This document shows positions 1 through 61,834 of a DNA stretch of 64,000 bases, piece after piece. Source of the DNA: Girardia tigrina (Eukaryota). A program made the translations under genes and the position numbers. Numbering within the stretch: the first letter of the stretch is position 1; each line of letters begins with the position of its first letter. The notes below the pieces were generated by a model. That model searched no databases. It saw only the letters and a program-made list of their open reading frames with translations, and was not told where the DNA came from. The stretch spans positions 1 through 64,000 of the forward strand of contig MQRK01216646.1 of assembly GCA_001938485.1 (NCBI GenBank). Direction: 5' to 3'.

Positions 1-246
1 GTTCCTTAGCAACCGTCACTAAGGTGACCGCGACCGTTGCCGTGGTAACGGTAACCCCCCGTGGGACATCGCGGCCGTAACTGAGGTGATCGCGACCGTT
101 GCCATGGTAACCGCGACCGCAACTAAGGTAATCGCGACCGTTGCCATGGTAACCGCGACCGTTGCCATGGTAACCGCGACCGCTGCTATGGTAATCGGGT
201 CGGTTGCCATGGTAACCACGATAACCCATATCGTTGCCATGGTTAC
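1..246. repeat. 21-bp tandem repeat (CGCGACC + 14-bp palindrome GTTGCCATGGTAAC)
   Basis: Exact GTTGCCATGGTAAC at 98, 140, 161 and 203. Variants at 36, 119, 182 and 233, plus GTTCCTTAGCAAC at 1. Units from 98 to 203 are spaced exactly 21 bp apart. Confidence 0.95.
36..246. promoter_or_regulatory. Cluster of RFX X-box-like sites
   Basis: GTTGCCATGGTAAC fits the established RFX/DAF-19 X-box consensus (GTTNCCATRGNAAC; palindromic optimum GTTGCCATGGCAAC). Function is inferred, not shown. Confidence 0.5.
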
Positions 247-975
247 GGCCAGGGGGGGGGGTGGTCGACAGAATGCCCATTTTCACACTACTTTTGAAAA
301 AAATTTTTTGTCATAATTAAAGAAAATAATACTTACAAAGAGTTGACTATAATTTTTAATTTAAGTAAAAAAAAATAAAATAATAATTCTGAGGATGTTT
401 TATCTTTAATATAAGTACACATTTATTCAACAAAAATATAATTTAGTTGTAAAAGTACCGAAAATTAAATGTATTTAAATTGAAAAATATGGATTCAAAC
501 ATTTTGATCTCTAGTACCTTTCTAGTACCTTTACCCTTGTTAAAAACCGTTGAAATTCAAAAAATAAGTCTTAAAATAATTGTTTTTCCTCAGGTAAGAA
601 GATTAGATAAATGTTCGTTTTCAACAATGTTTTGGACGCAAAATTTCAATTTTCTCCCTAAATTATTTATCAATCATAACAAACTTATTCTCAAAGTTGA
701 ATCGTCACTCGTCTCAAATCTTCAGTTCAACCATTTCCGAAGACATGAGTATTACTTCAAAGACAGGAAAGGTCTTAAAAGAAATAAAACCAGAAACTTG
801 TAATCCACACAGATAATTCATCAAAGTCTTTTGCCGATATATCTGTAAATACAAAACAAGCAAAAATATAAATATAATAAACATCAGTTTTCATTATTTG
901 ATATTTGTTATAATTTAAAATCAATGGCATTTTAAAAATAAGAGAAAAAAATATTTTATTAAATGATTTTGTTAT

Positions 976-1424
976 TGTGAGGAATATTTGGAATGTTGAT
1001 GTTTTTTGGTTGAATGTTGTGTCTTGATTTGGGACTGTGTCCCTCCTACCGAGTTGGCTGATTAATATTTTAATTCTTGTTATCTGAATCTAATTTATTC
1101 AAATTTAGATTTAATATTTAAATTTATTTTTAATTTTATATAACTTTAAATTTTAAATGATTTTTTTAATTTTAATTTTAACTTTGTAAATTATGAATTC
1201 AAATTAATATTATTAAATGATAAATAGTAATTTTAATTTTAAACCAATAACTTTTGTAGCAAATATTTTTAACGAATATGTAGCTTAAAGTTAGTTCAGA
1301 TTTTGGGATGAAAACTATTAAACTTTGACCGACATGAGTGAAAGTACTACTACGGATTGTCGTAAAGGTGATCCATATTGTAATGGTAGTAAATGTTGTA
1401 ATAAATGTGTGAGTTCTCTTAACA
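976..1424 (+). mobile_element. Solo LTR, TGTGAGGA...TCTTAACA family, copy 1
   Basis: TG...CA termini. Shares the core TTGATTTGGGACTGTGTCCCTCCTACC and an AATAAA near the 3' end with four other copies. Flanks GTTAT/TTTTT (degenerate TSD). Confidence 0.7.
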
Positions 1425-15258: not shown

Positions 15259-17488
15259 TACATAGAAATGTTTTAGTTTTTTTCCTTCCATGCTTTATAA
15301 TAAATTTATTATGTTATAAATAAATATTTAAGTACTAGATGGAGTTAAAAAATGCTTTATATGACATTTCATCTACTACAAAAGATTCTAATAGTTAATA
15401 ATAACGGGTCTAGGACAACATTTACCCCTCATAGAAAACCCCCAAAACAACGTATGAACTGCTAAAATTTGAGTGCAATATACTTGATCACCTAACCCTA
15501 AACAAACGCCTAACTCTAACCCTAACTTGGGTCTCTATTGTTGGTTCTTTATTATTTTTTTGCAAGGAAGGATTGATCTATAGGGGATTTTTTTTCAAAA
15601 ATTTGAGTATTTAAAGTATGAGGGAGTGAACAGACTTATGAACAGACTGTATATCACAAAATTCATTATAATAGAATAAAACATTGTTTAAACATTCGCA
15701 AAAATCCTTTACATAATCTTTATTGTAAAAATCTCACTGTCATTTCTTTTTTTTGTCGCTGTTATTTAATGGCTACTATTAGTCTGCTAACATTATTTTT
15801 AATTAACAGCTACAAAATAGCAGAATATCATATAGCATAGCTCTCGTGGAACATGCATAATTACTTTTTGAATTTGTATATTTGCTTTGGAATTTTATTC
15901 TTGACGTTCCACATCAAGAACATTTATTATGGACATTGATGATGGAATTACTTGAATTGGTAAAAAACATCAAAAAATATTCAAAGAAACAACAAAACTT
16001 TGTTAGTAAATTTTAACAATTTAAAAAGTTTTAGCGCCCCATCCGGGGGCTCGCTCCTTAGTTTGCGCACTTCTGAGTTCTGCGACAAGGATTTTTAAAA
16101 CAATGCTTTTTTAACATTAATTTAATTTTTATATAAATTTTATTAAAATTTTGTTTAACTGAGTTTTTTAATAGAATTTCGGAACACAACAATAATATTT
16201 TAAATTGAAATTATACTACTAAATCTAATTTTAATCTTTTATTTAAACTGACACATTTTAATGTGTAAACACATTTTTTTTTCGATTTTTGATAGTTTTA
16301 AAATGACGTTGTTGTCAATACGCCACATTAATTTGTTTTAGTATCGAAGGAAGTATGACAATGTTTCCTCTTTTATCGAATATTAATTATCAAAAGCTTT
16401 TAAATTTTTAAAAATAAAATTTCTTTTCTATGATAAAAATTTTATTAACATTATAATATCAATTTCTAAATATTACGAAATTCAAATTAGAAAATAATAA
16501 TAACATTAACTAGTAAATAATTCTTTAAAACATTTATATATTTTGTTGAAATTTAAGTAATGAATATATTCTAAACTAAAAGCAAACAATTTTTTTCCAT
16601 TCTTAAAGACTATCTCTAAAACTAAAAAAATAAATAAATTCATTAATTGATAAAAATTCTTGTAGAAATATTAAACTTACTTGTTGGACAGCAACGACAG
16701 CCGGCGTTGCTAATAATTGAATTAGGTATAGCTACTGGGATTTTAAATGCATAAAAATATTATATTTTGACAAAAAATAGTTTACAAATGGAAAAAAAAT
16801 AAAAACAAAATTTAAAATTTCAAAACAAATAACAAAATAATTAAATAAATATATTTAAATAATTAATTAAGAAAATAAAATATTAAAAATTAGCAAAAAT
16901 TATAATGAAAATTAATTAATGAAAATAAAATTAAAATAAATTTATGAATTTTTCAAATTATCATTATACAAATTTTTAAACATGATTTTAAAAATCGTTT
17001 AATGATAATTATTTATTTAAGAAGACAAATCCATCGAATTTATATTCTTACTTTAATAGAAATTAAAAATAATGAAATCTATATGGTAATTATATTAATA
17101 TAAAAAACAAAGGAAAGAGAAAAAGAAATGATTTGAAATCGATCACAAAAGACTAGAAAGTATGACCGGTAGATGTTAGCTGAAAATTCGCAGAAATCAC
17201 TAATATAATTATTCCAGAATCAAGACTGCTCAGAAGTTCGTGAACAATGTCAGCTAGATTTTACATAGAATGTTTGGAAGAGATTTGACCCACAAAGGAA
17301 TTATTGATACAATTAATCACATTGCTTGAACAACTTGAAACGAGGACTGGATTTAATTATTTTGACACAGATACAATTCTTCCACCTTGCAACAATCAAA
17401 TCAATTGATATTATTTCAGATTGAAGACTTTAATGTTTATTAGGCAATGAGTAATCGCCTTATTTATTTATATTTTCCATTATATATA

Positions 17489-19139
17489 CTACCAAAATTC
17501 ATATGTATTCGGACACGTAAAATAATTCTTATTAAAAATTCTAAATTATAAATAATATACACTTATTTGTATTATAGATGAATCAATTTGATATTTTACG
17601 ATAATCTAAATACAATTCTAAAATAATTTGAAGAAATCAAATCAAAAAGTTAACTAATAAAAATTTTATTCGCATTTTTTTTCTCAAATTCAAAAGAATT
17701 CGGACACCTACTATTTAAAATCTTGTAACATCGCCCTTTGCTTTTATGACATCTTCCATTCTTCTATTTATTGAATTTTATTTCTATAAATCCTGACATT
17801 TATCAATGGGAAAACTATTCCATATTACTAAAATTTTATTCTTCAAATCAATTTTATTTTTAGGACGTATTTTTCGTAATTCCTTTTTCATAATTTCCCA
17901 AACATTCTCTATGGGACTTAAATCTGCGCTTCCTGAAGGCCATGTCCAGAAAGACATATTATTTTTCATCATCCAAGTTTTTGTAAATTTAGAAGTATGA
18001 CAAGATGCTCCATCTTGTTGAAAAATGAAATCTCCATTGTCAAAATATTGTGTAATAGATCGGATGAGACTTTCCCTTAATATCTCGGTATACTTTGTAG
18101 AGTTCATTGTGGCCTATATAAAGTGAAGACTGCCAAGTCATTTGCTTGTCATACAACCCCAAATCATTACACTTTCTGGAAGTTTCAGAGTTCGGTTTAA
18201 ACAGTCCGATAATAATGACTCGGTACTAAGTCTTGAGACCTATTTTCCATTTTCGCCCATGGACAATTCAAAACGAGATCTTTCTGAAAAATAACTTTAT
18301 TCCAATCATTTTGGCTCCATTTACTATAATCAAGAGCCCATTCAAATCTCTTTCTTTTGAATAGGTGACATAAACGGTTTGTTTTTAGCCTTAAAGAAGT
18401 GTTACGTAATGTATATAATTTATTAAGAAAATCTCACCTTGTAGAATGAATAATTTAATTCATGTATTCGACGTAGACAAGTGGACGAAGAAGAAGAAAT
18501 ACCTTTTTGCATACTCCATTTCTCGTTGATTTCTTGAACAGTAGCACGACGATATTGAGGAATTAACCTCTTTAAACACCGGTTATCAGTAGCGGAAGTC
18601 AACTTTGGTCGTCCAGATTTCTATGCGATGAGTTATTCTGACAGTATTTAGCTTTTTAAATGTTATCGAACACCGTCGATTTACTTATCTCTAAAATTTT
18701 TTGAAATTTCCCTTACTGATATTCCTTTAACATGCATGGCAAATATTTTCTCACGCATTTCCGTATGCATCTTTTTCCTACGAACTATATTTTAAAAATA
18801 ACGAAAATTTAATCGACTGAAATATTTAAACAATAATAACTACATGTGTTTTTACTAATAATCCATATTGAATTTAAAATAATTCATTGCATATTATAAT
18901 TTTTATTAAGTGTCCGAATTCTTTTGAATTGAATTTGAGAACAAATTTTTAAATGCGAATAAAATTTTTATTAGTTAACTTTTTGATTTGATTTCTTCAA
19001 ATTAATTTAGAATTGTATTTAGATTATCGTAAAATATCAAATTGATTCATCTATAATACAAATAAGTGCATATTATTTATAATTTAGAATTTTTAATAAG
19101 AATTATTTTACGTGTCAGAATACATATGAATTTGGGTAG
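17489..19139 (-). mobile_element. Minos-like Tc1 element with IR/DR long TIRs and an intron
   Basis: About 220-bp TIRs, each with two direct repeats (AATTCA.A.G.ATTCGGACAC), and TA TSD. N-terminus (M)VRRKKMHTEMREKI resembles Minos MVRGKPISKEIR. A 48-bp GT..AG intron (18390-18437) splits FYK|AKNKP. FQQDGASCH..SADLSPIENVW gives DD34E. Confidence 0.93.
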
Positions 19140-20229
19140 TATATATTGATAACCTATGTCTGTATGTATATATGTATATCCGTAGCGCTCAATTATTATC
19201 TAATTACTATAATAATCAGTATATATAATATTTTTTCATTTATTCTTTCAATTTCTTAATAAATGAGGTTTAGGGTAAGGAGTAGAGTTAATAAAGTTTA
19301 TTCTGTGCTGAGTTGCATTTGTTTAAAGTTTAGGTTCAAAATCCTGCACTGCCTTTGCAACAAGCTAATATTTCTTTAATTTATCCTTTAATTAGTGTTA
19401 CAACCAGGAGGAAATCTAGACCTGAATTTGTATTAATTAGACCAAATTTACCTTTTAGTTATCTGGTATCAAATAAATAAAAAAACAAACTAACACTTGA
19501 CAATAATAATTATAGTGTATCTAAACGTTAAAACGGAAAGAGTTGAAAAAAGAAGTAGAAATGAATCACGATTGGAAAAACAACAAGTCACGTTGATTAT
19601 AAGGGAATAAGTATCTACTTAAAAATACTTTGAATATCGATAGTTCTTCGAAAAACTGTTGTGATATCTATCAAGTATATTAATAAATATTCGGGCTTCC
19701 TGAATGAAGAGAGCTCGCAATTGAAAGAAGTTTGTTTCGATATTTATGGTTGTTGTTATAAAGTATTTAGTTTTTACAAAATTCAGGAATAAAAGGATTT
19801 CTTTACAGAATGAAGCTGATTCTTTTAATGAGTTTTCTTTTTTTGTTGGGTGTAAATCTAATGAATTAAATCGAATCTTGTAGTAATATATTTTGTATTA
19901 TAATACAAATTAGAATATTAATTTATTGATTTAAACTTGTATTACTAGGTAATACTTAATTATTATTAGGGTAATTATTATTTATTTTTAATTTAATGTT
20001 TATTTATTTCTATTTTTTTTTCTTGTTATCCAAAATCAACCAACACGAGTCTGGAGAAATTATTGATGTCACGATAATTAGTATATTTTATTTCTGATAT
20101 GAATATAAATTAATTTAATTGACATAATCTAAGTTATTTTAACTATTAGTATCAACTACATTATACAAATGTTTATGTATATGTAGTGTAATTTTATTAG
20201 TAATAATTGATTCCAGAAATAGATCAAAA

Positions 20230-25600: not shown

Positions 25601-25739
25601 TACATACATTTCCTTTTTCGTTTTATAAATATCAAGTAAATTAACATTTTTCATGCTAAAATAAAATTTAAAAATTAATTCATATATATATATATATATA
25701 AAATAAAAATAACAAACGCCATTTTAAAAGTTTTTTATT

Positions 25740-25781
25740 TCTCAAAACATGTTTCGCCATTACGGCATCATCAGTTGTGAA
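25740..25781 (-). ncRNA. Minimal type I hammerhead ribozyme
   Basis: ttcacaa-CTGATGA-T-GCCG taa TGGC-GAAA-CATGT-T-ttgagaa. Core and stems I and II are intact, and stem III is a short palindrome (AAACATGTTT). Confidence 0.85.
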
Positions 25782-26047
25782 GTAAATTTCAAATTACAAG
25801 TCATTTATATGGCACATTGACTATTACACAATAATTTTTTTTTTAATTAATATTAAAAGATTTTAATATGATTGGATAATTCACTTTGAACATTTAAGCA
25901 TGGTTTATAAAGCATTTAAAACCATGCTTAAATGTTCAAAGTGAATTATCCAATCATATTAAAATCTTTTAATATTTAAAAAAAATAAAAAAATTAATTG
26001 CATAATAGTCAATGTGCCATATAAATGACTTGTAATTTGAAATTTAC

Positions 26048-26090
26048 TTCACAACTGATGATGCCGTAATGACGAAACATGTTTTGAGAA
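26048..26090 (+). ncRNA. Minimal type I hammerhead ribozyme (mirror copy, one stem II mismatch)
   Basis: CTGATGA at 26055-26061, TGCCGTAATGAC, GAAA at 26074-26077, then CATGTTTTGAG. Confidence 0.8.
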
Positions 26091-26168
26091 ATAAAAAACT
26101 TTTAAAATGGCGTTTGTTATTTTTATTTTTTACAAATAAATTGCCATTAAATCTTAATATATATATAT

Positions 26169-28573: not shown

Positions 28574-31500
28574 TGTAAGGATGTGTGAATTATTATTATT
28601 ATGGTTGTTAATTATTATTGAGATTATGATTATAAACTTATTATTATCATTATTAGATGTATGTGGAAAGTATGCGTGATTATAAGTATGAAATTGAGTA
28701 ACAGGATTGAGAGTTTGATGATATAATGTATGCATGTAATAGTATGCGGTGTCAATCATGTGGTGCTAACCCAGCAGATCTCCTTAATCCAGTTATGCAA
28801 CCAGATCGAGGTGTACTTGTATATAAGATATGCCAATTGAATGATTAGTTTATTATAGTGTTGATAATATATCTTAGAAAAGCATCTTGTCTCTTAACAT
28901 GGCGACCACGACCGAAGTACAAAATTTTATCAGACCACCAGAGACATTTCAGAGAAACGGAGACCTGGATAATTTTATTCTGGAATTAAAAAGATTCTTC
29001 GAGCTCAAGCGACAGCCTCCAGAATTTCAGGAAACTCTGACAAAAGCATTCTTGTCAGTCGAATTAGTAACACAATATGAAGGAACCAAAATCACAACTG
29101 AAGGATTTGAAGACCGACTCCGAAAAGCGTTTGAACCAAAACAAAATTAGCAGTAGATCTGGAAGCTGCGTTACGTTTTCGTATATCGGATGAGAATTGC
29201 TCACAATTCTTTGAAAAAATCGAAAAGTTAGTTGATAATATTCTCTGACACAAGTTAACGAAGCCGGCATAAATGTTATTCCTGACACAACATGCAATTG
29301 AAGACAGAGAAACAAAGAAAGAGCTCAAGATGCAAGATGTCAAATCATTGGACAAGGCCAAGGAAGTGATTTGCAGAATGGAAGAAATAAAGAAAGAACT
29401 AGAAAGCGAACAATTACTCGCTGCAGTTCACGTAAAAAAACATATGCCGATTGTGCAAGAAAACCGAGACAAGAGACTGATTTCAGGCAGCAGACGATGC
29501 AGAACGCGAGTAACGTAAATCATTTGCCTCATTTTAGAAGATTTCTAAATTATGAACGAAATGCTTCTCCAGTTCAAGTTTGCAGATGCTGGGCATGCAG
29601 AGAAGAAGGCCACATTCGCGCAGAATGCCCGAGCATAAGATACAACAAGTGTAACAAAAGTGGACATTTCAAATATCAATGCTGGTCAAATAGAAAATCT
29701 TTTGACGATCGACAGGGATACTTCAAACAGAGATATGGCAATATAAACCTTAGTCAAGACAATGGTTGGAGATTCAAAGACCACCCAACGATGGATCATG
29801 ATGAAGACAAAATGTACTAATGGAAGAAGAAGCCCAGAGCAATGATCGAGATTTAAAAGGAGAGACTCCGGCTTACAGGGAGGTGCTAGGAGCTATCAAT
29901 CTGGGTTAAGTAAGTATGTGATTGACACCGAATGTTATGATGCGAATGTGTATGAAGATAATGAATTTGTGATTTTGAATGACGCTGAATGTGCTGAATA
30001 TGAGTGTGATGATAATAATAATGATTTTATTAACGAAAATGTTACGAAAAATAACGCAATTCGAAACGATTCTGAATGTACTGATAATATTTTTATTAAT
30101 AATGATTTTATTTATGATACTTTGAGTGTATGTTGTATTAAAGAAAGACGTGATGAAATATATTATCTTTAACAAATAGTAATTATCCTTCTTATAATTC
30201 TTTCAATTCTAATAATGCTAATGGTAATAATTCACTTTTGGAGTTGAATCTAAGGAGACCTCACGCTTTAACAAAAATAGCATATGAGGTAATGAATGGT
30301 AGGCCTAGTATAAAAATTTGGTTAGAGGATGTGATTAAAGAACATTGCTTACTAGATAGAGGAGCAAAGATAAACGTAATTAGTCTGAATATTATTGAGA
30401 AATTGAAAATGAGTGACATAATAGAAAAGTGCGATATACAAGTCATATGTGCAAATGACAGTCGATTAGTTATTCTGAGAGTGATATTTTTAAAAATTAC
30501 AATAAATAAAATAGAATAAATAATATGTTTTTATGTTGCGGCACATATAGAACCATTAATTATTGCGGGAATAGAAATGATGATGATGTTTAATATAAAT
30601 TTAACAATAGATTCAGAAAAGAATAAGAAACAAGTGCTGAGCATTGAAGATAAATATAAAACTCATAATAATTTGCAGTTAGAAAAGATAATGCTTAAGT
30701 TTAACTCAATCTTCATGAAAGACAAGTGGGATGGGGGACATACAACACTAATAAAGCACAAAATTTCGACAAATGGGGGACCCATAGCTATAAATCCTAG
30801 GCGCCAACCAGTGCACATAGAAGAAAAATTAAGAGAAATGTTGACAAATATGGAGAAATCAGGCATAATAAGAAGATGTGATTCAGTATGGAACAGCCCT
30901 TTAGTTTGTGTGCTCAAGAAGAATAAAACGGATTTGCAAATTTGCCTAGATTTTCGAACGTTAAATTTGATTACGGAACGACCACTTTTTCCTATGCCCA
31001 ATATTGATGAAATGATTGAGATTTTGAGAGGAGCGCAAGTGTTTAGCACTATCGACTTGAGTAATGCGTATTACCAAATCGAGTTAGAAGAAGAATCGCA
31101 TTTAAAAACAGCATTTTCGACTAAGAGTGGACAGTATTGTTTTAATAGAATGCCGCTTGGCATTGCAGCGGCCCCAGCGACTTTTCAAAAACTTATGACA
31201 GAAGTTTTAGAGGAATTAAATTGGAAAGAAGCGGTTGTATATCTAGACGATATACTAATTTTTTCTCGTGATGAACAAGAACATTTAAAGAAACTCAAAA
31301 GAATATTCAATAAAATAAAAGATGCAGGACTAAAAATTAATCTGGACAAATGTAATTTTTTAAAAGAAGAAATAAAGTTTTTAGGACATATAGTAACTAA
31401 AAACGGAATTAAAACAGATGACGAAAAAATTAAGACAATGCAAGAATTCAAGACTTCAAAATGTGTAAAGAGATTTAGAAGTTTTTTGGGTTTGACCAAC

Positions 31501-32425
31501 TACTATTGAAGATTTGTTAAAGATTACGCGAAACAGTCAAGAGTTTTAGATACGAAAGATTAGTTTGAAATATACCTTAGTGTGTCTTTAGAAAGATACC
31601 CAAAGACGAAGCAATCGATCATAAAACAATTCACAGCGGAACCTTTTGAAGAAATATTCATAGATTTTTGCGGACCTTTAAAAAAATCATTTTCAGGCAA
31701 GCAATACATCTTAGCAATTATAGACCAGTTTAGTAAATGCGTATCGCTCACAGCCATTGCTCCTCAAGACGAAAAAACCACGGCTAAAATATTAAAATAT
31801 TAAATATGGAGCTCCGAGAATAATACACTCAGACAGAGGACGAGTTTTCGAATCTAGCGTTATAAAGGCACTGGCAAATACGCATCATATATCCATTGTA
31901 CAGTCAAGTCCGTACCATCACCAAACAAACGGACTAATAGAACAATAAGAGATGCTATAGCTTTGAGCATGACAGACCGGAAAGGAGATTGGATAGATAC
32001 ATTACCAGATGTGGAGTTTATGATTAATGCAACAGTTCAACAGTCAACAAAAGTATCACCAGCAGAAATAGTTTTTGGAAAAACTATTAACCGTCATTGG
32101 ATAGAGAAAGATAAGCCACAGGAAGAGCGAGAAACAAACCGAAATATTAGAAGACAAGAGTTAACGTCTAAAATAAAAATACAACAAACCTTGGGCACTC
32201 AAGAAAATATAACGAATAGACGGTATAACATAGGAGAATGGGTGTTAATAAAGAAAGAAAATTGTAATAAAATGGAAGTGAGATATGAAGGTCCATATGA
32301 AATTATAGAAATATTACATCCTAGAAGTTATCCATTAAAAAGCAAAGATGGAAAAAGTATAATAAGGAATATAGAACGGATACGGGATTTTAAAAGGGGG
32401 GATGTATGGATGTGTGAAGTAGTAA
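28574..32425 (+). mobile_element. Ty3/Gypsy retrotransposon, near full-length, defective
   Basis: 5' LTR TGTAAGGA..TCTTAACA (28574-28899) and PBS TGGCGACCACGA (tRNA-Arg-like). gag has the CWACREEGHIRAEC knuckle, protease reads LLDRGA, RT (30577-31509) has YLDD, and integrase has IDFCGP/YEGPY. PPT AAAAGGGGGGA precedes a 3' LTR starting TGTATGGATGTGTGAA at 32403 (truncated). RNase H and the IN Zn finger are deleted near 31555. Confidence 0.95.
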
Positions 32426-34179
32426 TAAATTTTCGAATTTAAGAAATATTTAATAACAATTTTACATTTTTCAATAGTTTAACATCAATTTTGCGAACTA
32501 CTTATAATTTGAAACTTTTTTTTATTTTAATTACCGTAAAAGAAACAAATATTAACTTATTTTGAAATATATAAAAAATAATAGAAAAAAATAAAAATAT
32601 AAATAAGTCATATATAAATAAATGTAGTTTCAAGTGGTTTAATTAACATTAATATTAATAACTGGTTTTCAGAAAGTTTAACATATTTGAGAATTTTTAT
32701 TATCAGGTAAAATTTTTCAATTATTTTTGGAGATTAAATATATTTTTGTCTGTTCTACAGTTTTAATGCCTTTTGGTAAGGTAGTTAAATATTAGTATGA
32801 AATAATTAACAACAGCGGATGATCCGGATGTATTTAATGGAGACTCACAAATCTCAATAACTGTGTCTATTAGGTTCATATTATTAGATTTTAAATTGTT
32901 CTAAACTTACAAAAACGAACAGACTTAAATTTTAACACAATATTGCACTATACTACAGATCCAGGATGAGTAACCATTAATATATCATAAGCAATGTTTC
33001 GTCTGTTGGTCAAATTACAACTTTGTCAACTCCTTTTTTACAATATTTCTTCTTCAAAAGCAAAATGTAACCCATTATCCAGTGCTTAAATAATATTCAT
33101 TTTAATGAAATGTTCGAGATTCTCACCACCTCAAATATATTGTAAAATTTATGTTAAATAACGAAATGATAAATTAAATTCAGATTTAAAGAAATTTAAA
33201 ATATTTTAAGCTCAAAATTCAAATTTTAGTGAATTGAATTAGATTAAATGAAAATCAATAAAAATTAATACTTATCNNNNNNNNNNNNNNNNNNNNNNNN
33301 NNNNNNNNNNNNNNNNNNNNNNNNNNNNNNNNNNNNNNNNNNNNNNNNNNNNNNNNNNNNNNNNNNNNNNNNNNNNNNNNNNTTCAGTGAAAATTTGAAG
33401 TTTCTATGTGGTCTAAATGCTGAGATATAGGCAAAAGTAAATGGCCCATTCTTGACAAGATGAAATACAGTGAAGGTATATGAAAAGTGCTTAAAAAAAT
33501 GAATGGCATAATAATATTTTTTAAAACCACGCTTGTATTGATAATGATTCTGTGTTGGAAGACCGGGACGGAATTCTGCATATTTTTAGCATATCAAAGT
33601 CCTAATTGAATTCAGATTTCATAATGTACAAGACTGCCAATTTCTGGAGTTCGACTCTGAATCGATCCCAACTATCATCCATTAAATCGATGCTGAGTCG
33701 ATATTTCGAGTCAACAACTTGAACTAGTATAAGTCGGTCAAGCCGGTTAATGTAAAAAGTAACCTAAAAATTTAGGAAAGCAATATAGTATGCGTTTTAG
33801 TGTAATGCAACTCTGGGATCACGGTTGAATCCTGAATTATTTGTTCCGACTCGTAAACCTTTGACCAAATAATTTTTTGGCGATTGCTTATTTGGATAGC
33901 TTGGAGTTCAGAGCACCGTTTCCGATTATGAAAGCACCAAAATTCGGTTTTAACACAGTAAAATTATTGAAAAGAGTCGAATACCTCGAGTTCCGAAAAT
34001 TAATGAATAAATTTCTCATGACAAAGATTTCTCCAAATAAAGGATAATTAATTAGGAATCCAAAAATGTATTTATTATGCATTGGGGGGTGTGCTTTTTG
34101 TAGCCATTAGCATCCCAGGCTTTCTAAAAAGCCTCGGGCTTAATAACTTTCAAGGACGTGAGAATCACTATAAAATAAA

Positions 34180-35140
34180 TTATTATAAAATGATACAAAA
34201 AATTAAAAGATAATGGCAAATTATGTTTAAAAACAAAAACGCGCCATTTGTTAAATTTATTTTTTACGACAATTAATTTCGACGGTATAACGGTCATCGT
34301 CAGGTCTCAAGAAAGAAATGAATTTTAAATCTGCTTATATTGGCAAGCAGTGATTATGTCATCAATGGATTATTATGTCATCTAAACACGCTCAATAGGG
34401 TTTTTGAGAGACCCGTTTGCACATTAATCTTAGGACCTAAAGATCTGATATAAAGTGCTTCACAGTCCACCCTCTCCCAATAGTTTTTAAAACGAGAACA
34501 CAGAATTTTAAAATCTTTTATGTTTATGTTTTCATTCAACTTACAACCCTTTCTGTTTTCTGCAATATTACTTCCACCTACATTCCGACCATGTTCTTGG
34601 ATTCTCTTACAAAGATGACGGAACGTCTCTCCAATGTATGTGGCATTACACCCATTACATGTAAATTTATATACGAGATCCGAACATAATCCAAATGGGG
34701 TTGGAGATTTATTACAAAACACATTTTGGATTTTATATGTTTGTGANNNNNNNNNNNNNNNNNNNNNNNNNNNNNNNNATTTTAAAATTGAACGTTTAAA
34801 TTGACCAAATCCCTCTGAATATGGAATGCTTAAAACATATTTTAAAGTTGTTGAGTCTTCTTTATCATTTATAATTGGTTTATTAATTAATTTATCAATT
34901 GTTTCTTTGATCAATTTCTCAACAATTGATTTTAAGTAACCATTTTTATTCAATAATTTAGTTAATTGGTTAAAATCAATTGATCAAAATCAATTGTTGA
35001 GAAATTGACCAAAGAAATAATTGATAAATTAATTAATAAACCGATTATAAATGATAAAGAAGACTCAACAACTTTAAAATATGTTTTAAGCATTCTATAT
35101 TCAGAGGGATTTGTTCAATTTAAACGTTCAATTTTAAAAT
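34180..35140 (-). mobile_element. 5'-truncated Penelope-like element (GIY-YIG endonuclease) with inverted 5' duplication
   Basis: ORF 34378-34953 reads NGY..IPYS..LVYKFTCNGCNATYIGETFRHLCKRIQEH..EALYI..PKINVQ. 34780-34933 is inverted at about 34986-35140. Confidence 0.92.
34265..34310 (-). ncRNA. Minimal type I hammerhead ribozyme in the Penelope 3' UTR
   Basis: gac-CTGACGA-T-GACcGTtatACcGTC-GAAA-TTAAT-T-gtc, with palindromic stem III AATTAATT. Confidence 0.8.
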
Positions 35141-36359: not shown

Positions 36360-37830
36360 ATCATTATCATATACCCTCCTCTGAGTTCCATGGCATTTCA
36401 CTATGTGATCCAAAATTGAGTTTTTCTATTTGATTGGGTATGTTCTGCAATTCTATAACAGAGGTGACGATTTGTCTATCCAATGTACAAGGATTCAAAT
36501 TTGTGACATTTATTTATTTTGGGCCACAGAAACTATTCGGAGTACTGTAAAGATCAGTATCTGTTGGTTTTCTATAGATCCCTGTCAAAAATCTATTTTG
36601 CTTTCTTTCAACCAAGAAATAATAAAATATCGTTTATGGCTAAAAGACCAATGGAAATTTTTGATAAGGAAATCTATACTCTCCATAATATGCTTAGTAA
36701 TAATGGTTATATTAAAATATTTAAATAATATCATTAAAAATAATGAAGAGTCAATTTATTTAAAATCAAAAGACTAAATCAATAATAATATGTATTAAGA
36801 ACACCAATTTGACTTTTTACATTTTATTAACATAACAAGTTTGATTGTCCTCAAGACAATCTTTGTCAAAGCTTTCGTATGATTGAATTCTAAATAATTG
36901 ATTAATGACTTAAATTTTATTATTTGTAGCAAATGGTGATATAAATAATTTGTTAAAATATTTACTCAAAACTTATTGGATAAAAATGAAAACGATTATT
37001 AATTATTTAAAAATTATTAATTCGAGTTATTTATTAAAAATTGTAAATAAAATTAATTAACTTATTTTAAATTTTACAATTATTTTAAATTAGAAATAAA
37101 TTTAAACATTACATATTTTTAGATAATAAGAATTAAAATATTAATCATTCATCTTGGTAAGATAGACGCAATTCCAAATCAACATACAAACACAAAACAT
37201 TCAAATTATTCCTCACAAAATGAATACAATTGACGACGAGATTAATTAAAAAATTTATTTTTAAAATGTCGTACACCGAAGGTGCCAAAGAGTTTAAACG
37301 AATTTTAGAAAAATGGGCTCCAGAAGGGGTTACAATTAAAATATTATTTATTGTTATTAACTAATAAAATTTCTAATTAAATAAATCTAGAACAAAATTG
37401 GGTATGAAAGGAAATTAAGCTACCAATTTAAATATCACAAGTACAAGAATCTTTGTACATTGGAAAGACTCAACTCTATTCAAGAAGAAAAAGCTCAATT
37501 TTGGATCACATAGTGAAATGCCATGGAACTCAGAGGAGGATATAATAATGATTTTCGGGTTGCCATTAGCAACTTTGATCACAATTATAAAAGGAAAATT
37601 ACTAAAGCACTGCTAATTAAGTTTTATAAACCTAGTTTAAATGTACAAAGTGATTCGTCCAATCATATTAGAGTATTTTGACGAACGCTTTGTGACGTAA
37701 TGATCATCTTACTATATAAACAGAAATTTTTTTACTTAAATACAGAATTAAAAATACCACAAAAGTGGCGAAACAAGTTTTCAAATAAAAATTTTAAATT
37801 GAAATGATGTTATTATCTTTACTTACGAAA
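36360..37830. mobile_element. Rearranged Penelope-like element (inverted 5' piece plus + strand linker/GIY-YIG), interrupted by solo LTR copy 4
   Basis: Minus strand 36360-36600 reads IYRKPTDTDLY and LYIG*TNRHLCYRIAEH. Plus strand reads FDKEI..LSNNGY (36600-36790), SYTEGAKEFKR (~37265) and ILDHIVKCH..KPSLNVQ..RVF*. A decayed hammerhead lies at about 37744-37782. Confidence 0.8.
36793..37217 (-). mobile_element. Solo LTR family copy 4
   Basis: TATTAAGA...TCCTCACA with TSD ATATG/AAATG. Alignable to copy 5 over its whole length. Confidence 0.8.
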
Positions 37831-43087: not shown

Positions 43088-43430
43088 TTACAGTTCCCAT
43101 TGTTGAGTTCGATCGACACATGCATTTAAAATTAGTTTGATACGATTTTTGATATATTTCTTTGTCTTTTTGATACAAAAATGACATAAATCTATATATA
43201 TTTTCCTGATGAAATCTGTTTTAATTTGCTTTGGAACCAATGGCAACACACGATTTCCTTCTTGCCTATCCCATAACCCATTCCAATAGATCTGAATTTC
43301 TTTTAACTGGTTCAACTCTGAGCACTTTTCTTGTTCGTCTTTTGTCCATTGAATTGTAGACTGAATCGCCACTGTATTTATATACTTCATCTTTGATTTT
43401 GTTGATTTTAGTTCTTCATGTTTTGTTTCA
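43088..43430 (-). mobile_element. Gypsy integrase Zn-finger region fragment
   Basis: VLPLVPKQIKTDFIRKIYIDLCHFCIKKT..ILNACVDR (decayed H2C2 region). Confidence 0.65.
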
Positions 43431-43431
43431 C

Positions 43432-45400
43432 ATAGTGCAAGTGGAGGAGCCTTAGGCGCTGTTCTGGGTCAAGAGGATGACGAAGGTAGATATTATGTTG
43501 TGGCATATGCCAGCAGAGTTTTAAAAGGAACAGAAACTCGTTATTCAACTATAGAAAGAGAATGTTTGACAATTGCGTTTGGTGTAACACATTTTAGACA
43601 ATATTTATATGGTGCGGAAATCATTTTGAAAACAGATCACAAACCTCTCGAGAGTTTAAGGAAGAATAAAAACGCATCAAGTCGATTAATTGGATGGGCA
43701 ATGAGATTACAAGATTGCGATATTAAAATAAAATATAGAACGGGAAAGGCAAATGGAAATGCTGATGCATTGTCTAGAATCCCGATCGCTCTAATAGAAA
43801 ATGAGACTATAAAGCGTAAAGATGAAGTAAGCCAAATGATTGAAATAGCTGCTGTAAACGTAAACATAAACACGAATTTGCAAAACTGGCAAGAAAACGA
43901 TGTCAAACTTAAAAGGTTAAAAGAAAAATTAATGGAACAACAAATAAAACAATATAAAGTTGAGAATAATATATTAAAATATCTGGATGGAGATGAAGAA
44001 TTAATTGTTGTACCTGATTCACAAAAAGAAAATATAATGATGTAGTATCATGATGGAGCCTTAGGAGGACATCTTTCGTTGCGTAAAACGTTTAACAGAA
44101 TCAGAGAAAAATATTATTGGGAAGGTGTGAAAGCCGACATTGAGTCATGGATCCAATCATGTGCAATTTGCGCAACTCGGAAAAATACGGGCAACCGAAG
44201 GAAGGTTCCCTTAAAACCGATTCCAGTACCAGCAACTCAATTTGAATTATGCGCAATGGATATCTTTGGACCATTGCCAGAAACAGTAAATAGTTACAAA
44301 TATATTCTAGTTTTCGTGGACCATTTCTCAAAATTCACTGAAGCTTTTGCAATGCCAGATCAAAAAGTTGAAACACTTGCACCAATATTCGTCGAACGTA
44401 TCATATTTAAATACGGACCACCCAAAAAGATTTTGACTGTTAGAGGTTAAAACTTGATGAGTGGTATCATGAACCAAATAAATCATGTCTTTGAGATATT
44501 AAAGCTCAATACTACAGGCTACCACCCGGAAAAAAGGGTTGGTTGAACGTATGACGGTACATTTTTAAATAGAATGGCATGTTTAACAAGCCGAAAACAA
44601 TGCGATTAGGATATTTTTATTTCATATGTGTTATTCGTGATAAATAATACCAAAACGGAAGCAACAGGTTATAAACCAAGTTATCTCTTATATTTACGAG
44701 ATATTATAATGCCTGTCGACTTGGATTTTAGTTAATGGAAGTCCCAGACTTTGTTACCTTAATGTTAGAAAAACTTAACATTGTGTATAAACAAGTCTTT
44801 TTGCGGATAAAGTATAACCAAGAAAAATATAAAGAACAATGCGATAAAAAGACAAAACTACATTCCTTTAAGGTAGGGGACCGAATGAGAATATTCGCCC
44901 CCGAACCAAGGAAATGACTAACTCCGAAATTAGCAAGACCATATAAAGGTCCATACGAGGTCATCAAAGTGGCACCCACAAATTTATTTATAATACAAAA
45001 TAAGAACGCTGATTCTATAGTAGTACATGTTAACAAATGTAAAAAAGCTGAAAATGAGCTTATTAAGAGATATAATCTCAGATCACAAACTCAACCGGAT
45101 GAAATAGCAGTGGTGGAAATCGACCCACTACTACCAAGGAATAGAAATACAGAATCTATCGATTATGGAGACATCATAACAATTAATCCTCAAGTACCAC
45201 GTGTAAAATCGATTCAAATAAAATCAGTAAAAGTTAACCATGATAATGGATCGCCATAATCTCATAATGAGATTAGTGAAAATGCAACTATTTTATTGTT
45301 AAAAGAAGATATTGGATTGCATTTTGCGAAAGGACATATTTATAATGACCAATTTTTCAAATGTGCGGTAATGAAATACCCACACCTTTAACTGTGAAAG
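43432..45400 (+). mobile_element. Ty3/Gypsy pol fragment: RNase H plus integrase
   Basis: ALGAVLGQ..AYASRVL..YSTIERECL..TDHKPL..NADALSR, then HD..GGHL..CAIC, MDIFGPLP and PYKGPYEV. Stops and frameshifts present. Confidence 0.95.
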
Positions 45401-50730: not shown

Positions 50731-52429
50731 GTTAGGTATAAAATTTCGCACATGTCTAGAAAAAAAATTATTTTCCTTCTTTTTAGTGCATTGGTAATGC
50801 TTGAAAAACGTGGTTGTTTTTATAAAATTTTTTTTATTAATAATATTATTTCATTGTGATCGAGTGTTCACTCACCTACGGTCCAATATTTACAGTGGTA
50901 CTCAAGAACAACATCAGTTTCAGAAACTCCATAAAAATATAATATAAAGTTAATTTGGAGAACTTCTTAAAAATACAACATGAAAATATTTAACTAATAT
51001 CAACAAACTAAACACAATCACTAAACATACTAATTCGTGATGTGTTCAATATTTATCTGATCTAAGATAAAAAAAATGTAATAACAAATTTTAGTTTTTG
51101 TCTCATTTAATAAAAAAATATATAGGTTTAAATTTCAGTAATTGTTTTATTTTATCCAAAGTGCTAAAGCTTTTATTTTGAATTTTCGTCTGTGCGATAA
51201 TTTCAGATGTCAAATATCCAAGCGTTTTCAATTTCTTTGTTATGCAGAATACATCCAGTGAAATCCATTATTTTTGTAAACATTAATACATGAATCTCCA
51301 TTTCTGACAACTGTTAAACATTAGATCACAAGGTTTAAAGTTGGTCATATCTTTATTTTTGATGAAGAAAAATCAGGTCAGTCAAAGGAAATTTTCGATT
51401 AAGGTAATGAAAAATTGGAGAAGAGCATCGAATTACCATGAAAATACGGTCAACACAGCTCAACTTTATCGATGGTACAGTCCACGCAAAAGTAAAATAC
51501 ATGGATATCAGAGAATTGTGCTCCATATTCGTACCCCACTAATCGACTGGCGAAATAAAGTGAAAGCGCTGAGTGTGCACTCAGAACAATTTGAACCTGT
51601 GGGACTTCTATTGTGAGACTTTCCTGGTAAATTTCATTAAGAAAGATAAAATCACAGTGAGTATGTATTTGTTGGAAACACACGTGAATTAGCGAAGTTG
51701 AAACTGCATAGACAGAAGCCATCTTTGAAGATGTAAACAGGGACAAGTCATGATCAAGCAATGATGCATTAAATTTTCTTAAATCATAAAGGTAATATTC
51801 TCTTAGATTTTGTGGATAAAGGCATCACCATCAACACTGCCTCTTACATTTTTAGTCAATGATGTGAACGTAATTGTGAGAAGAATGGGAGTTGGGAATA
51901 GAATTTGAGAGATAATTGTCGAATAGAGTGAGAGTAGTTTAAACGAAATTGAATTGATTATTGAAGAAGTTTCGAATGAATTTGCAGAGACTGTTGAGAA
52001 TTTCAAGCTTTAATATTATTCAACAGACTGATAATTAGTTCAATACTTTCGTGGATAATCGAATGTGATTTTAAAAATAAGTAGGAAGGAAAAATTAGTT
52101 TTATTTAAACAATATACAATTAATTTTATTATACGAGTAAAATATTCACCATTAATTTCAGGAGTTATTTGTTTTACATATTATTTTTTTTGCAATTTTA
52201 ACAAGATTTTTTCTGAGTTTTTATATTGAATTCCAATTTGTTGAAATTGAATTAAAAATAAAGTACAATGGAATTGATACTTCTATAAATTGGATTGAGA
52301 TTTATCTCGCTAGTATTGATTTTTATTTTTTAATTTTGAGTTTTTTTCTTTTTTGTTGTTCTTCGCGGAGTGAAGAGACATAACAACAGCTAACTCGTGA
52401 CGATCGCTAGAAAGAATAAAAGGAAGCAG

Positions 52430-52888: not shown

Positions 52889-53799
52889 TGATTAATTGAA
52901 TTAATCAATTGAATGAAATTAAAATAAATAAAATAATTCTCTTTGGAAACAATATGTTGTTTGTCCGAAATATAACCTTGGAGACCCTCAGATTCGTAAC
53001 GCATTAGTGCCGTATTGGATGAAATTGGTTCGTGTAACGGGACGCAATCCGCCAGAACTAGTCTAATTCAAAGAGAAAATTATAATTTATCTTGACATTT
53101 CTGTCGTCGGAATTAATAGTGATAACATCCAGTTATACCGTAACCATCAATGAATCGTTTGTCTACCTCCCAAATATCATAAGCTACGGTTTCTTATGAT
53201 TATTTTTAACTTTCGTGCCGATAATTCGAATCTTTATGTGTAACTTTTATCTAGAATTCGATTTAATTAATCAGTCTTTCATTTCATGTAACAAGTGAGT
53301 ATGTTTTGTTTAAAGCACGACGTTATTTTTATGTATGTTGTTACATGTACCACTATTCAAACACATAATACATCGACGATAGGTCGAAATAATATATTTC
53401 TACCGTCCTAAATTAGTATGTAAGTATACGGTACCAGTCAATGTCAGAGGATTTTTGTCGCATTGAGAAAATGAACAAATCGATTTCCATAACACTAGCT
53501 GTGATGCATCCAATCGGAGCACTAATCATTTATCGGGTTTTCTGGTTTAGTCGGTACTGGAAATTCGTCTCACTTGGCACTCTCGCCGACGTATTTCCAT
53601 CAAACTACCGACAACTAAACCACTCGCATAGTGAGTTTCACCCGATGAATGTTTAGTAGCGGTCTAAACATGGAATCAACATTTGTTCAGCAAATCTCAT
53701 GTTGATGATTTCAGTTGACACCTTTTTACTGGTACAGAAATATAATTATTACTGATTTGGGACTCCGGAAAACAATCTATTTATTTCATACCACTAATA

Positions 53800-54307
53800 C
53801 TGTCGCTGACATTTAACAATATCAATGTAGACAGTTAATAATAATTCTTTAATCTAAAATACAAAGAATTAATCAATTATCCAATGAAAAACAAGACACA
53901 CTTACCAAATTAGACATATGATATGCAGTCCTCACACACATGCATACACACATATACGAAATTTCCACGAGATGGTATATCATTTTTGATATTCTNNNNN
54001 NNNNNNNNNNNNNNNNNNNNNNNNNNNNNNNNNNNNNNNNNNNNNNNNNNNNNNNNNNNNNNNNNNNNNNNNNNNNNNNNNNNNNNNNNNNNNNNNNNNN
54101 NNNNNNNNNNNNNNNNNNNNNNNNNNNNNNNNNNNNNNNNNNNNNNNNNNNNNNNNNNNNNNNNNNNNNNNNNNNNNNNNNNNNNTTAATTGTCTAATTT
54201 GGTAAGTGTGTCTTGTTTTTCATTGGATAATTGATTAATTCTTTGTATTTTAGATTATAGAATTATTATTAACTGTCTACATTGATATTGTTAAATGTCA
54301 GCGACAG
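53800..54307. mobile_element. MITE-like fold-back with about 115-bp TIRs and TA flanks (middle in a gap)
   Basis: TA-CTGTCGCTGACATTTAAC...GTTAAATGTCAGCGACAG-TA. One mismatch seen between the arms. Confidence 0.6.
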
Positions 54308-55739
54308 TACCAACAATCCTGAAACAACCTTATGTTGATCATTCTAAACAATAAATTTTCCAGATTATTTTGTGTTATTTAATTTATTTAGTTAATGGAA
54401 GATAGAGATCCACTCGCTCTCATTTTTTATTACAGTTTTTTGAATTTTTTTCTATCAGAAAAGAAAATTTATAAAAAACTAATAATATTGTCATTATTAC
54501 AAACCGATTTGAGATAAAAGTCAATTACAAGTATAATATCCAAACAGAGACAATTATCTATTCAAAAGCAACTTGAATAACAAACTAACGAGCGATCGTT
54601 CTATCATTAGATTCTTATATTTCTTGATCTCCTGACCGACTCTTCTCACTCTTCCGGTTTTGTGATATATCTTTGCATCCTTTTGTTCTTTTTATAAACT
54701 ACTTCCATTTAATTGTTGTTACCAATATTACTAATATCATAAAAACCACAAATTGCTTATTAATTTCTCTCATTTCAATTAAAAAATAAACATTTATCAA
54801 GACGAGAAATATTATAATTTTTTTAATAATTATATTTTAAAGTAAGAAAAAAGTAAATATCAAAGTTAAAAAAACAATGAATAAAAGTGACATTATTTAT
54901 TATTTTAAATGTTAATTTTAAATAATTTCTAGAAATATATACTAATATCTCTATTTATTTTTCGATTACTTAAATAAAAAATTTTTTCTAGGAACTGTCG
55001 ACGTCTTTTTTATAGATCTGTCATAAAATATGAATCAATTAAGGTAGTTTAATGAAATTATCTTTTGATTCTCATCAATCAAATGGAGTTTTTTTCGTTG
55101 ATGATAAATTTCCTCAGATTCTTCTTCTAATAGGAGCCGCCGACAAATATAAAATGTGTTATTTTAAGTTTATATTTAAAAGTTATTAATATAATTACAT
55201 AAAGTCAAACAAGTGACTATAAAAAGAGTAAAAAAAATATTAAAGGCTTTAATTTCAAAAAAGTACATTTTAATATATCCTTTGAATAATCCTTTATAAA
55301 ATATCTTTCCAAAAACGAAAAAGGGAAAATTGCATTGAAAATAAATTAGTAGAAAGTTTACTCACAAAGTGTTTGTTTGTCGACGTCTCAATTTGGGTAT
55401 CAGCAAAGAAGAACGAGACAAATATTCTTTGGAGAATATGAAAGACGCGCGATAAATGACGTTGAGTTTAAGCTAGATTGTTTAGATCAAAGAAGGCTGA
55501 AAAAGGAAAAAAGAAGATCGTAACAAATAAGTAATTTCATAAAATTTTGATTTTTCTATATATATTATTTTTATTAAGATAATTTTTGAGGAATTTTTTT
55601 CTAATTTGATATTTTGTATGTTGTTTGTTGTTGCGTCTACCCGAATGATCGATTTCTATATTAAATATTTGACTTTTTCAAACACGATTTAAAATTCTGA
55701 TCAAGTAATCCCCTAACGCTAACCCATTTTAATTAATCC

Positions 55740-60639: not shown

Positions 60640-61834
60640 TTCCAACTCCGGCAATCCTTCGCCTGATGAGAACTTTTGAGACAGTTGAAACATAGTCCTT
60701 TCTTTTTAACTAGCTCGATCCTTCCCTCAACTGTCAACTCTTTGAATTGTTTACATTCTGTCAACATGTGATCTGTTTTTTTCGCATAATATGCATATTT
60801 TTATCCCACTCTTGTTTTGATTTTGCTCGTCCTGTCTCACCTAAAGTTTTCCTTCGTTGATTGTTCTTTCTGTATTCCGTTCCTGATTGAGTTGTATCAA
60901 CTCGTGCCACATATGTGCGTTTCTCATCTTCTTTGCCATGTTTCCGAATTCCTGTCAAGGTTTCTTGCACTCCCCTTCTCAATATCGCTTCCTTCTGAAC
61001 CCACTTTAACAACTCCTCGACACTGGCGGACACTGACTGATCTTGTACATGTCTTTGATGTTGCAATAATGTTTCTGGTGAGAGTTTTTTTATTAAGGTC
61101 CGGAGCATAAATCCATCCTGTAGTTCCGACTCCTTCCTCATATCTTTGAATCTAACTATCACGTTCTCCACTAACTCTGCAAACCTTTCGAGATCTCCGA
61201 CCTCCCCCGATCTAATTGGTCGGAATCTCTCCACGTCATCTAAAACCGATAAATATAAACGTCTATTCACACCATATATCGTTTCTAGACGTTGTAGAGC
61301 CAATTAGAAAACCGCTTCTCCATAACCAAGGTTTTCGATCAATCGAAGAGCTGGTTCATTTAAATAGTTTCGGAGCTGTAGTAGTTTCTCCTCATTAGAT
61401 GCATTTGTAATTTCAATACAATATCTGAATGCAATTCTCCAGTTTTCGTATTCTTTGGTATTACCAATGAACATTGGGATCGTCAGTTTTCGAAATCCGG
61501 ACAAGGTTCGTTGTTTAGCAACCTTAATTTCATATTTATTCGATCTGCACTGCTCTGCTGCACTATTTTCTCCTTTAATGAGCATTAATTGCTCCATTTC
61601 CTCATATTTTTCTCTATTCCCTTGAGGTCTTCTTCGATCTCGTCCACTCTGTCTTCTTTCCCCAATCGAATTCCAATATCTTTTAAATTTTTAAAATATC
61701 GAACGGATTACTGTGTACCACCGTCAGAAGTAATTTACATTTTCATGCATAGTTGTCTGTAGCCTGTTATTTCAGCTCCGTAGCGATGTTTCAATGAGCA
61801 TAACATTTCGGGATCAGGACGTACCCCCACAACA
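60640..61834 (-). mobile_element. BEL/Pao retrotransposon 5' part (gag)
   Basis: LTIPMFIGNTKEYENWRIAF..EKLLQLRNYLNEPALRLI..ALQRLETIYG (DUF1759-like gag) and the knuckle GLCFNCLKSSHQAKDC. Possible LTR start TGTTGTGG at 61834. Confidence 0.9.

Follow-up and report, generated by a model that had tools for sequence, protein, structure and literature searches.

What kind of DNA ends in the short GC-rich block at the left edge of this stretch of 64,000 nucleotides (the window), and which protein reads the 14-base boxes repeated inside it? The window is AT-rich (0.27 GC), transposon-dense, CpG-undepleted and of animal type, and reads as the flank of an insertion. Its positions 1–250 form the GC-richest of 1205 N-poor 250-bp segments (0.59 versus 0.27 overall). 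A first-pass annotation, made from the letters alone, placed an array of RFX X-boxes here inside a Polinton-like terminus.

An array of 14-base boxes

Exact copies of GTTGCCATGGTAAC start at positions 98, 140, 161 and 203 of the + strand of the window, and copies with one mismatch at 36 and 233. With up to two mismatches, both strands together have 10 matches, compared to a shuffle mean of 0.20 (none of 100 shuffles reaches 10). The earlier count of at least four exact 14-mers plus variants is thereby confirmed. The box had been described as a palindrome; it is an imperfect one, with six of seven pairs palindromic.

Features of the array ("consensus" refers to the X-box consensuses of the following section):
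1–13, + strand: X-box-like site of 13 bases where the window begins (degenerate consensus, both strands)
15–28, + strand: variant box with five changes, 5 of 7 pairs still palindromic, one change present on both arms (degenerate consensus only)
36–49, + strand: box with one mismatch, 62 bp before the copy at 98 (all three consensuses)
70–216, no strand assigned: seven head-to-tail 21-bp units, each a 7-bp CG-rich spacer plus a 14-mer, strong and degenerate units interleaved (Tandem Repeats Finder, unit table)
77–90, + strand: degenerate unit, 7 differences (no consensus match)
98–111, + strand: exact 14-mer, copy 1 (all three consensuses, both strands)
119–132, + strand: degenerate unit, 6 differences (no consensus match)
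140–153, + strand: exact 14-mer, copy 2 (match count, consensus table)
161–174, + strand: exact 14-mer, copy 3 (match count, consensus table)
182–195, + strand: degenerate unit, 3 differences (no consensus match)
203–216, + strand: exact 14-mer, copy 4, with a diverged spacer (match count, consensus table)
233–246, − strand: proximal 14-mer resembling an X-box; the next box is 30 bp away and the flank differs (strict consensus, minus strand only)

Tandem Repeats Finder reports a period of 21 bp in the array and also periods of 42 and 63 bp. The strict 21-bp period of the first-pass annotation holds for the seven units at 70–216 and fails for the copies at 15, 36 (1 bp off) and 233 (9 bp off). 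The 30 bp between the copy at 233 and the next box are within 1.5 bp of three helical turns. This final box stops at 246 and the hexamer ACTACT at 292, in agreement with the 46 bp given earlier for the distance from array to end. The array continues past position 1, so that its visible length is a part of the whole.

Helical phasing is rejected here as proof of function, since near-helical periods are common in the window. Among 28 other tandem arrays (period of at least 10, one period chosen per array), 8 lie within 1 bp and 4 within 0.5 bp of a multiple of 10.5.

Translations of the array have no Pfam match and no Atlas match above 0.78. Against proteins, one search gave a single weak 58-residue match and a second search gave none. 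A search of the array region with Rfam yielded nothing credible (best E 0.59), window 1–330 has no match in phages and plasmids, and neither a sigma-70 promoter nor a terminator was found.

Resemblance to the RFX X-box

Three published X-box consensuses (PMC2375033) were applied: RYYNYY N1-3 RRNRAC (degenerate), GYTRYY N1-3 RRHRAC (restricted) and RTNRCC N1-3 RGYAAC (strict). They match 7, 5 and 6 sites in positions 1–292, respectively, which amounts to eight distinct sites and bears out the proposed likeness to the RFX/DAF-19 X-box. Elsewhere in the window (the other 62 kb) the strict consensus is matched twice. A random 21-bp tandem unit of the array composition yields a strict match with a frequency of 0.00046 (400,000 trials) and a shuffled unit with 0.0007. 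After allowing for 10–20 well-known long motifs, we estimate the chance of such a resemblance at about 1%. The in-register units at 77, 119 and 182 (three of seven) match none of the three consensuses. PMC2375033 notes that matching a consensus is by itself no predictor of RFX dependence.

The terminus

The GC-rich block terminates in ACTACT at position 292; composition alone puts the change between approximately 271 and 291. The features of the terminus, compared with a diverged relative (locus L004, see below), are:
252–261, + strand: ten-base G tract between tip and array, not found at the matching place in L004 (alignment)
262–292, − strand: 31-base non-repetitive tip, conserved with the tip of L004; candidate core origin or integrase end (alignment to L004)
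287–292, + strand: end hexamer ACTACT, the putative outer end, with the element to its left (sequence; Maverick end motif)
293–298, + strand: flank; at a Polinton end these bases would be the candidate 6-bp target duplication (sequence alone)

The G tract is the only + strand run of at least 8 G in the window. In PMC8097293, (AGT)2//(ACT)2 is the commonest end motif of vertebrate Mavericks, and whole-word counts in the table of that paper give 712 for ACTACT versus 338 for CTCTCT. By chance, 50 bp of the remaining window would contain ACTACT with a probability of 0.007. A Polinton/Maverick end motif is present at one end, as ACTACT at 287–292, and the homologous AGTAGT is found in L004.

No second copy of the element end is present in the window. 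One flank is visible here and one in L004, and neither family shows a mirrored end or a target duplication. None of 93 frames of at least 78 real residues matches a polymerase, capsid, ATPase or protease family in Pfam, and tblastn with eight polymerases found nothing in the window, in L004 or in L002, another locus described below. The only rve match in the window accompanies LTR-retrotransposon domains at 43–45 kb. The 63.7 kb downstream are free of Polinton genes, as expected for flank, and the interior of the element lies beyond position 1.

Window 1–292 is probably a Polinton-type terminus. The earlier assignment as Polinton-like gains the Maverick end motif and a diverged AGTAGT-ended family with the same boxes, and applies to the one end seen. 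Read by itself, the window also admits a hAT-like end at 290; chance yields this pattern about ten times more often, and evidence from outside the window is therefore needed. Two further superfamilies were considered and rejected: the boundary has neither the CTRR end of Helitrons nor the TAGTG end of CACTA elements.

A diverged relative with the same layout

Bacterial and archaeal genomes were scanned for two boxes 3–33 bp apart, and eight loci were returned. L004, 2,254 bp long, is a scaffold from a bacterial bin (MAG). It has no recognisable gene and a CpG ratio of 1.05, and is probably a eukaryotic carry-over. A single AGTAGT is present, at 1843. Alignment of window 262–292 with L004 1843–1877 gives 27 identities in 36 columns. 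The score of this tip alignment is reached by 1 of 5000 shuffles against the whole of L004 and by 4 of 20000 shuffles with the hexamer fixed. It amounts to 33 for L004 versus best scores of 19–25 in the other seven loci and the remaining window.

The boxes of L004 lie 113, 134 and 155 bases inward from the hexamer, with the 21-bp spacing and the orientation seen in the window. Two of them are identical to the 14-mer at 14 of 14 positions and one at 11 of 14; the spacers match those of the window at 0–3 of 7. A fourth, partial box is found 27 bp further on, out of phase. L004 was chosen on its boxes and box identity is partly built in, which does not apply to tip, orientation and spacing; the comparison comprises two families. 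Box and spacer length persist between window and L004, while the spacers and the intervening DNA do not align. Four motifs that we take to be YY1-like and three that are presumably E-box-like flank the boxes of L004; they are absent from the 292 bases of the window. As judged by alignment, two diverged AGTAGT-ended termini share the tip and a same-oriented 21-bp array of predicted X-boxes, with the spacers turned over.

Further features of the scaffold include an inverted recurrence of the tip motif 62 bases inside (1849–1874 and 1937–1962) and, where the scaffold starts (1–318), a tandem repeat of 128/148 bp that contains inverted arms. P0002, the protein that NCBI annotates over the junction, is probably spurious, and the L004 frame has no family in Pfam, PHROGs, NCBIfam or Atlas.

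Boundary of the L004 family

A protein search with this spurious frame returned the frame itself and four unnamed records (five of 11 candidates). From the hexamer on, 24–25 of 25 residues are common to the five records; before it, 0–3 of 10 are. Judged by these translated junctions, the five records are five independent insertions of one element. The boundary of the family is placed at the hexamer, because five unrelated flanks diverge there. Both valine codons, which lie inside the hexamer, are kept in the five records, and at least GTAGT is shared. This excludes a start at TAG, since both valines require the G before it. The residue before the valines can end in A in all five records, a weak indication. 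One record continues through the boxes, keeps their 7-residue register and has one fewer YY1-like unit.

Two of the four outside flanks (P0005 and P0006) are frames of protein-primed family B polymerases and stop at the junction or at most three residues from it. They are 62% and 40% identical to a 1,336-residue DNA_pol_B_2 protein. Searched directly against Pfam, PHROGs, NCBIfam, PDB and phages, the two flanks gave no identity, which was obtained via their long relatives. Eight long relatives (8 of 150 matches scanned) were inspected; three carry DNA_pol_B_2 and six Endonuclease_7. Searching called proteins favours intron-free flanks such as polymerase frames. The flanks indicate that the L004 family lives among Polinton-type elements, with apparently nested insertions; this establishes company, not identity.

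Other loci of the scan and the rest of the window

The spacing of the two boxes is within 1 bp of a helical multiple at six of the eight scan loci, versus 8 of 31 possible spacings, and the loci are not independent. Five of the loci are bacterial (see below); those remaining beside L004 are one coding repeat and one intron in a eukaryotic contig. L002 belongs to a 2.8-Mb contig (CBDBCZ010000019.1) that is filed under a Nitrospirales MAG and looks eukaryotic. It contains exon-like pieces of cathepsin, prolyl oligopeptidase and armadillo repeats together with microsatellites, and a 47-bp duplicated X-box closely follows a cathepsin exon.

In the window itself, the Pfam domains among the 93 frames are those of Tc1/mariner, LTR retrotransposons and GIY-YIG, besides a few weak ones. 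Broken LTR retrotransposons are located at 29302–32442, 43365–45256 and 60761–61690, with pieces of gag knuckle, reverse transcriptase, RNase H, integrase and DUF1759. Inverted-repeat elements with 92–99% arm identity are located at 17482–19146, 25688–26141, 34779–35140 and 53798–54309. The first of these holds a DDE_3 transposase fragment, and the other three resemble MITEs or a Penelope-associated repeat. A segment of about 300 bp occurs four times with 71–76% identity: 956–1424 (+), 21503–21047 (−), 37218–36948 (−) and 39618–39325 (−). Two of the copies are followed by a short cysteine-rich exon-like stretch that ends at a splice-donor-like site, and the segments may represent a small family of host genes. 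About 660 bp separate the first copy from the end of the element. An isolated 15-base X-box-like palindrome is present at 37559–37573, near a repeat that is also found at 25896–25970. At 51453–51824 (−) there is a weak PDDEXK_3 match (E 0.0044, below the cut-off).

Proposed mechanism and alternatives

Taken together, we assign a probability of about 0.5 to a Polinton-type terminus whose phased X-box array is bound by host RFX and serves as a host-controlled regulatory block. Window 1–292 would be the outer portion of a terminal repeat. The element, of Polinton/Maverick type or a non-autonomous descendant of one, would have inserted into a genome of animal type that is AT-rich and dense in transposons. 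The hexamer and the tip of about 30 bases would be the start of protein-primed replication and of integration; such an initiation/integration role has been proposed for the Maverick end motif (PMC8097293). Host RFX dimers may bind the X-boxes, spaced by 21 bp, on one face of the helix. The array would then control transcription of the element, and perhaps also how it replicates; host factors act in this way at other viral termini. By analogy with known RFX sites, the array could activate or repress. Given Polinton membership, RFX is a rather likely binder. The tie to ciliated or male-germline cells that the first-pass annotation had drawn is unsupported: RFX sites also repress, and an ordinary cell line suffices for RFX1 and RFX3 to act on the terminal repeat of a virus.

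The best-surviving alternative retains the same Polinton-type end. The palindromes would be read by an element-encoded protein or by another host dimer as a signal for origin, packaging or integration, and the likeness to RFX sites would be convergence. Among the box columns the right half is kept, with four of the six invariant columns, and the left half drifts. This is in line with such a reader, but the conserved half site is equally what RFX needs. It is common for mobile elements to bind subterminal repeats of their own, quasi-palindromes among them (Hermes, PMC10368747). Furthermore, five of the eight scan loci (L001, L003, L005, L006 and L008 at 10001) are bacterial pairs of a near-identical palindrome, located between or just before genes. 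Two of these pairs adjoin MarR genes; in two Myceligenerans species the pair lies between the MarR gene and a flavin hydroxylase and is likely a MarR operator. Because bacteria carry near-identical palindrome pairs, the sequence need not imply RFX. Against convergence, a strict RFX match is rare by chance, and the neighbours of the L004 boxes, presumably YY1-like and E-box-like, look like a host-factor cassette. We consider a reader other than RFX unlikely.

In a second alternative the array is a by-product. A single ancestral palindrome would have been amplified by slippage within a terminal repeat, and its copies would be kept because they fold as single strands during strand-displacement replication, or for no reason at all. 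The units are related by duplication, with higher-order periods of 42 and 63 bp. The first-pass annotation expected boxes to be conserved over spacers. Within the window this is not the case (mismatches at 16 of 98 box positions versus 4 of 49 spacer positions, Fisher p 0.21); between the two families it is (boxes at 14 of 14, spacers at 0–3 of 7), with L004 selected on its boxes. Seven of 10 distinct box substitutions keep the degenerate consensus, versus 6.9 expected from transition bias (p 0.62). The window alone shows a good motif that was amplified rather than selection on each copy, because three in-register units are unmatched, the boxes vary more than the spacers and the substitutions fit transition bias. 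For the + strand, folding is better than in each of 200 shuffles (z −3.5). On the other hand, folding of the minus strand is no better than chance (z −1.4, 19 of 200 shuffles), and any palindromic repeat folds. Moreover, box and spacer length have persisted between families whose spacer and intervening sequences no longer align. We rate a by-product as quite unlikely.

The terminus could also belong to a cut-and-paste transposon, either hAT-like at 290 with an 8-bp nTnnnnAn site or of another TAG-ended superfamily, and the repeats would then be transposase sites. The end fits the hAT terminal pattern. The 8 bases after 290 fit nTnnnnAn, the Hermes target (PMC10368747), as do 13% of the positions of the window. 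The joint pattern is common, however, with 0.067 occurrences per 50 bp and a fit at 3 of 16 other ACTACT sites. In addition, the whole hexamer is common to the window and L004, and the kept valines put the boundary at least one base outside TAG, not at the short TAG/CAG-type end of hAT elements. We regard a cut-and-paste end as improbable.

The array might also be host sequence that has nothing to do with mobile DNA, such as a plain minisatellite, an enhancer of the host or a coding repeat of 7 residues. Three reading frames that are open across the array and an element start outside the visible sequence would agree with this. Such an origin is highly improbable, as the 62-bp step breaks the repeat frame, Pfam, protein, Atlas and Rfam searches gave no credible match and the tip is homologous to that of a repeated, independently inserted element.

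An extension of the RFX reading is a long shot. Phased RFX arrays might be a module that Polinton termini have long had in common throughout the animals, and act as a latency switch. Strong and weak X-boxes would keep the integrated element silent or primed, and release would follow a change of RFX activity during differentiation or replication stress. In yeast, Rfx1/Crt1 acts on ribonucleotide reductase genes in the replication-stress response. If true, such a switch would be a prophage-like induction signal for virus-like elements that is read by a host regulator.

Comparison with known systems

A terminal array of host-factor sites names a candidate for the regulator that activates animal Polintons, and for the cells in which it does so. 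The question can then be approached through chromatin data that already exist and through simple assays of binding. Each insertion would bring several strong RFX-like sites to a new location. Polinton particles are described in PMC8097293 as not observed. Planarian Polintons are de-silenced during normal differentiation and are held by PIWI (PMC8532177); a terminal RFX block could explain this pattern if the host is similar.

The terminal repeats of Polintons/Mavericks, as described in PMC8097293, resemble the window in their end hexamer and in the sharp change from GC-rich to host composition. With at least 292 bp, the block fits their repeat length of 46–1,447 bp (PMC8097293). Their ends are described there by 6-bp motifs, to which the window, known here from one end, adds an internal array of factor sites. 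Putative factor sites are reported in repeats derived from a Polinton end of C. elegans, and the main text of PMC11414722 does not mention DAF-19. Among the matches listed from the literature searched, no work joins RFX with Polinton, Maverick or adintovirus ends, one unrelated mention aside, and none was found on the 14-mer GTTGCCATGGTAAC; Repbase may carry such repeats. A search for RFX with terminal repeats of DNA transposons surfaced only piRNA-cluster work. Host-factor sites in viral termini are known already; a phased RFX multimer common to Polinton-like ends was not found in the literature searched.

The adenovirus origin has a protein-primed end with a short repeated start and a conserved core, followed by sites for NFI and Oct-1. 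The window has a similar layout, with predicted host-factor sites past a candidate core. It differs in that the adenoviral sites are single, closer to the end and bound by other factors. By eye, no adenovirus-type (NFI/Oct-1) site is evident in the tip of the window.

The RFX sites of HBV and polyomavirus are internal enhancer sites and not a multimer at a linear end. With the predicted sites of the window these EP/EF-C/MDBP sites share the palindromic form, and DNA viruses make use of them (via PMC5760533).

As in the window, where they are predicted, protein sites are repeated near the end of hAT elements (Hermes, Ac and Tol2), at a distance of at most a few hundred bases (PMC10368747). Their sites are scattered 4-base motifs read by the transposase, with an 8-bp duplication (PMC10368747), whereas the boundary of the L004 family points to the hexamer.

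Several boxes of unequal strength in one region are also found at yeast RNR2/3/4 and at F25B4.2 of C. elegans (PMC3245922). These promoters have two to a few boxes, belong to host genes and repress or tune them (PMC3245922). An X-box array therefore need not be an enhancer.

The closest precedent is the action of RFX1 and RFX3 on the terminal repeat of AAV. Both proteins bind the D sequence of the inverted terminal repeat and raise expression modestly (PMC5760533). In AAV an RFX site lies within the viral terminal repeat and affects expression of the viral genome (PMC5760533); the window has predicted RFX sites at a comparable place, the probable terminal repeat of a virus-like element. In this single-stranded parvovirus, binding has been demonstrated to one imperfect site, the mutation of which lowers expression by 20–30% (PMC5760533). 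The window, in comparison, has six predicted strict-consensus sites in a phased array, at the end of a probable integrating double-stranded element.
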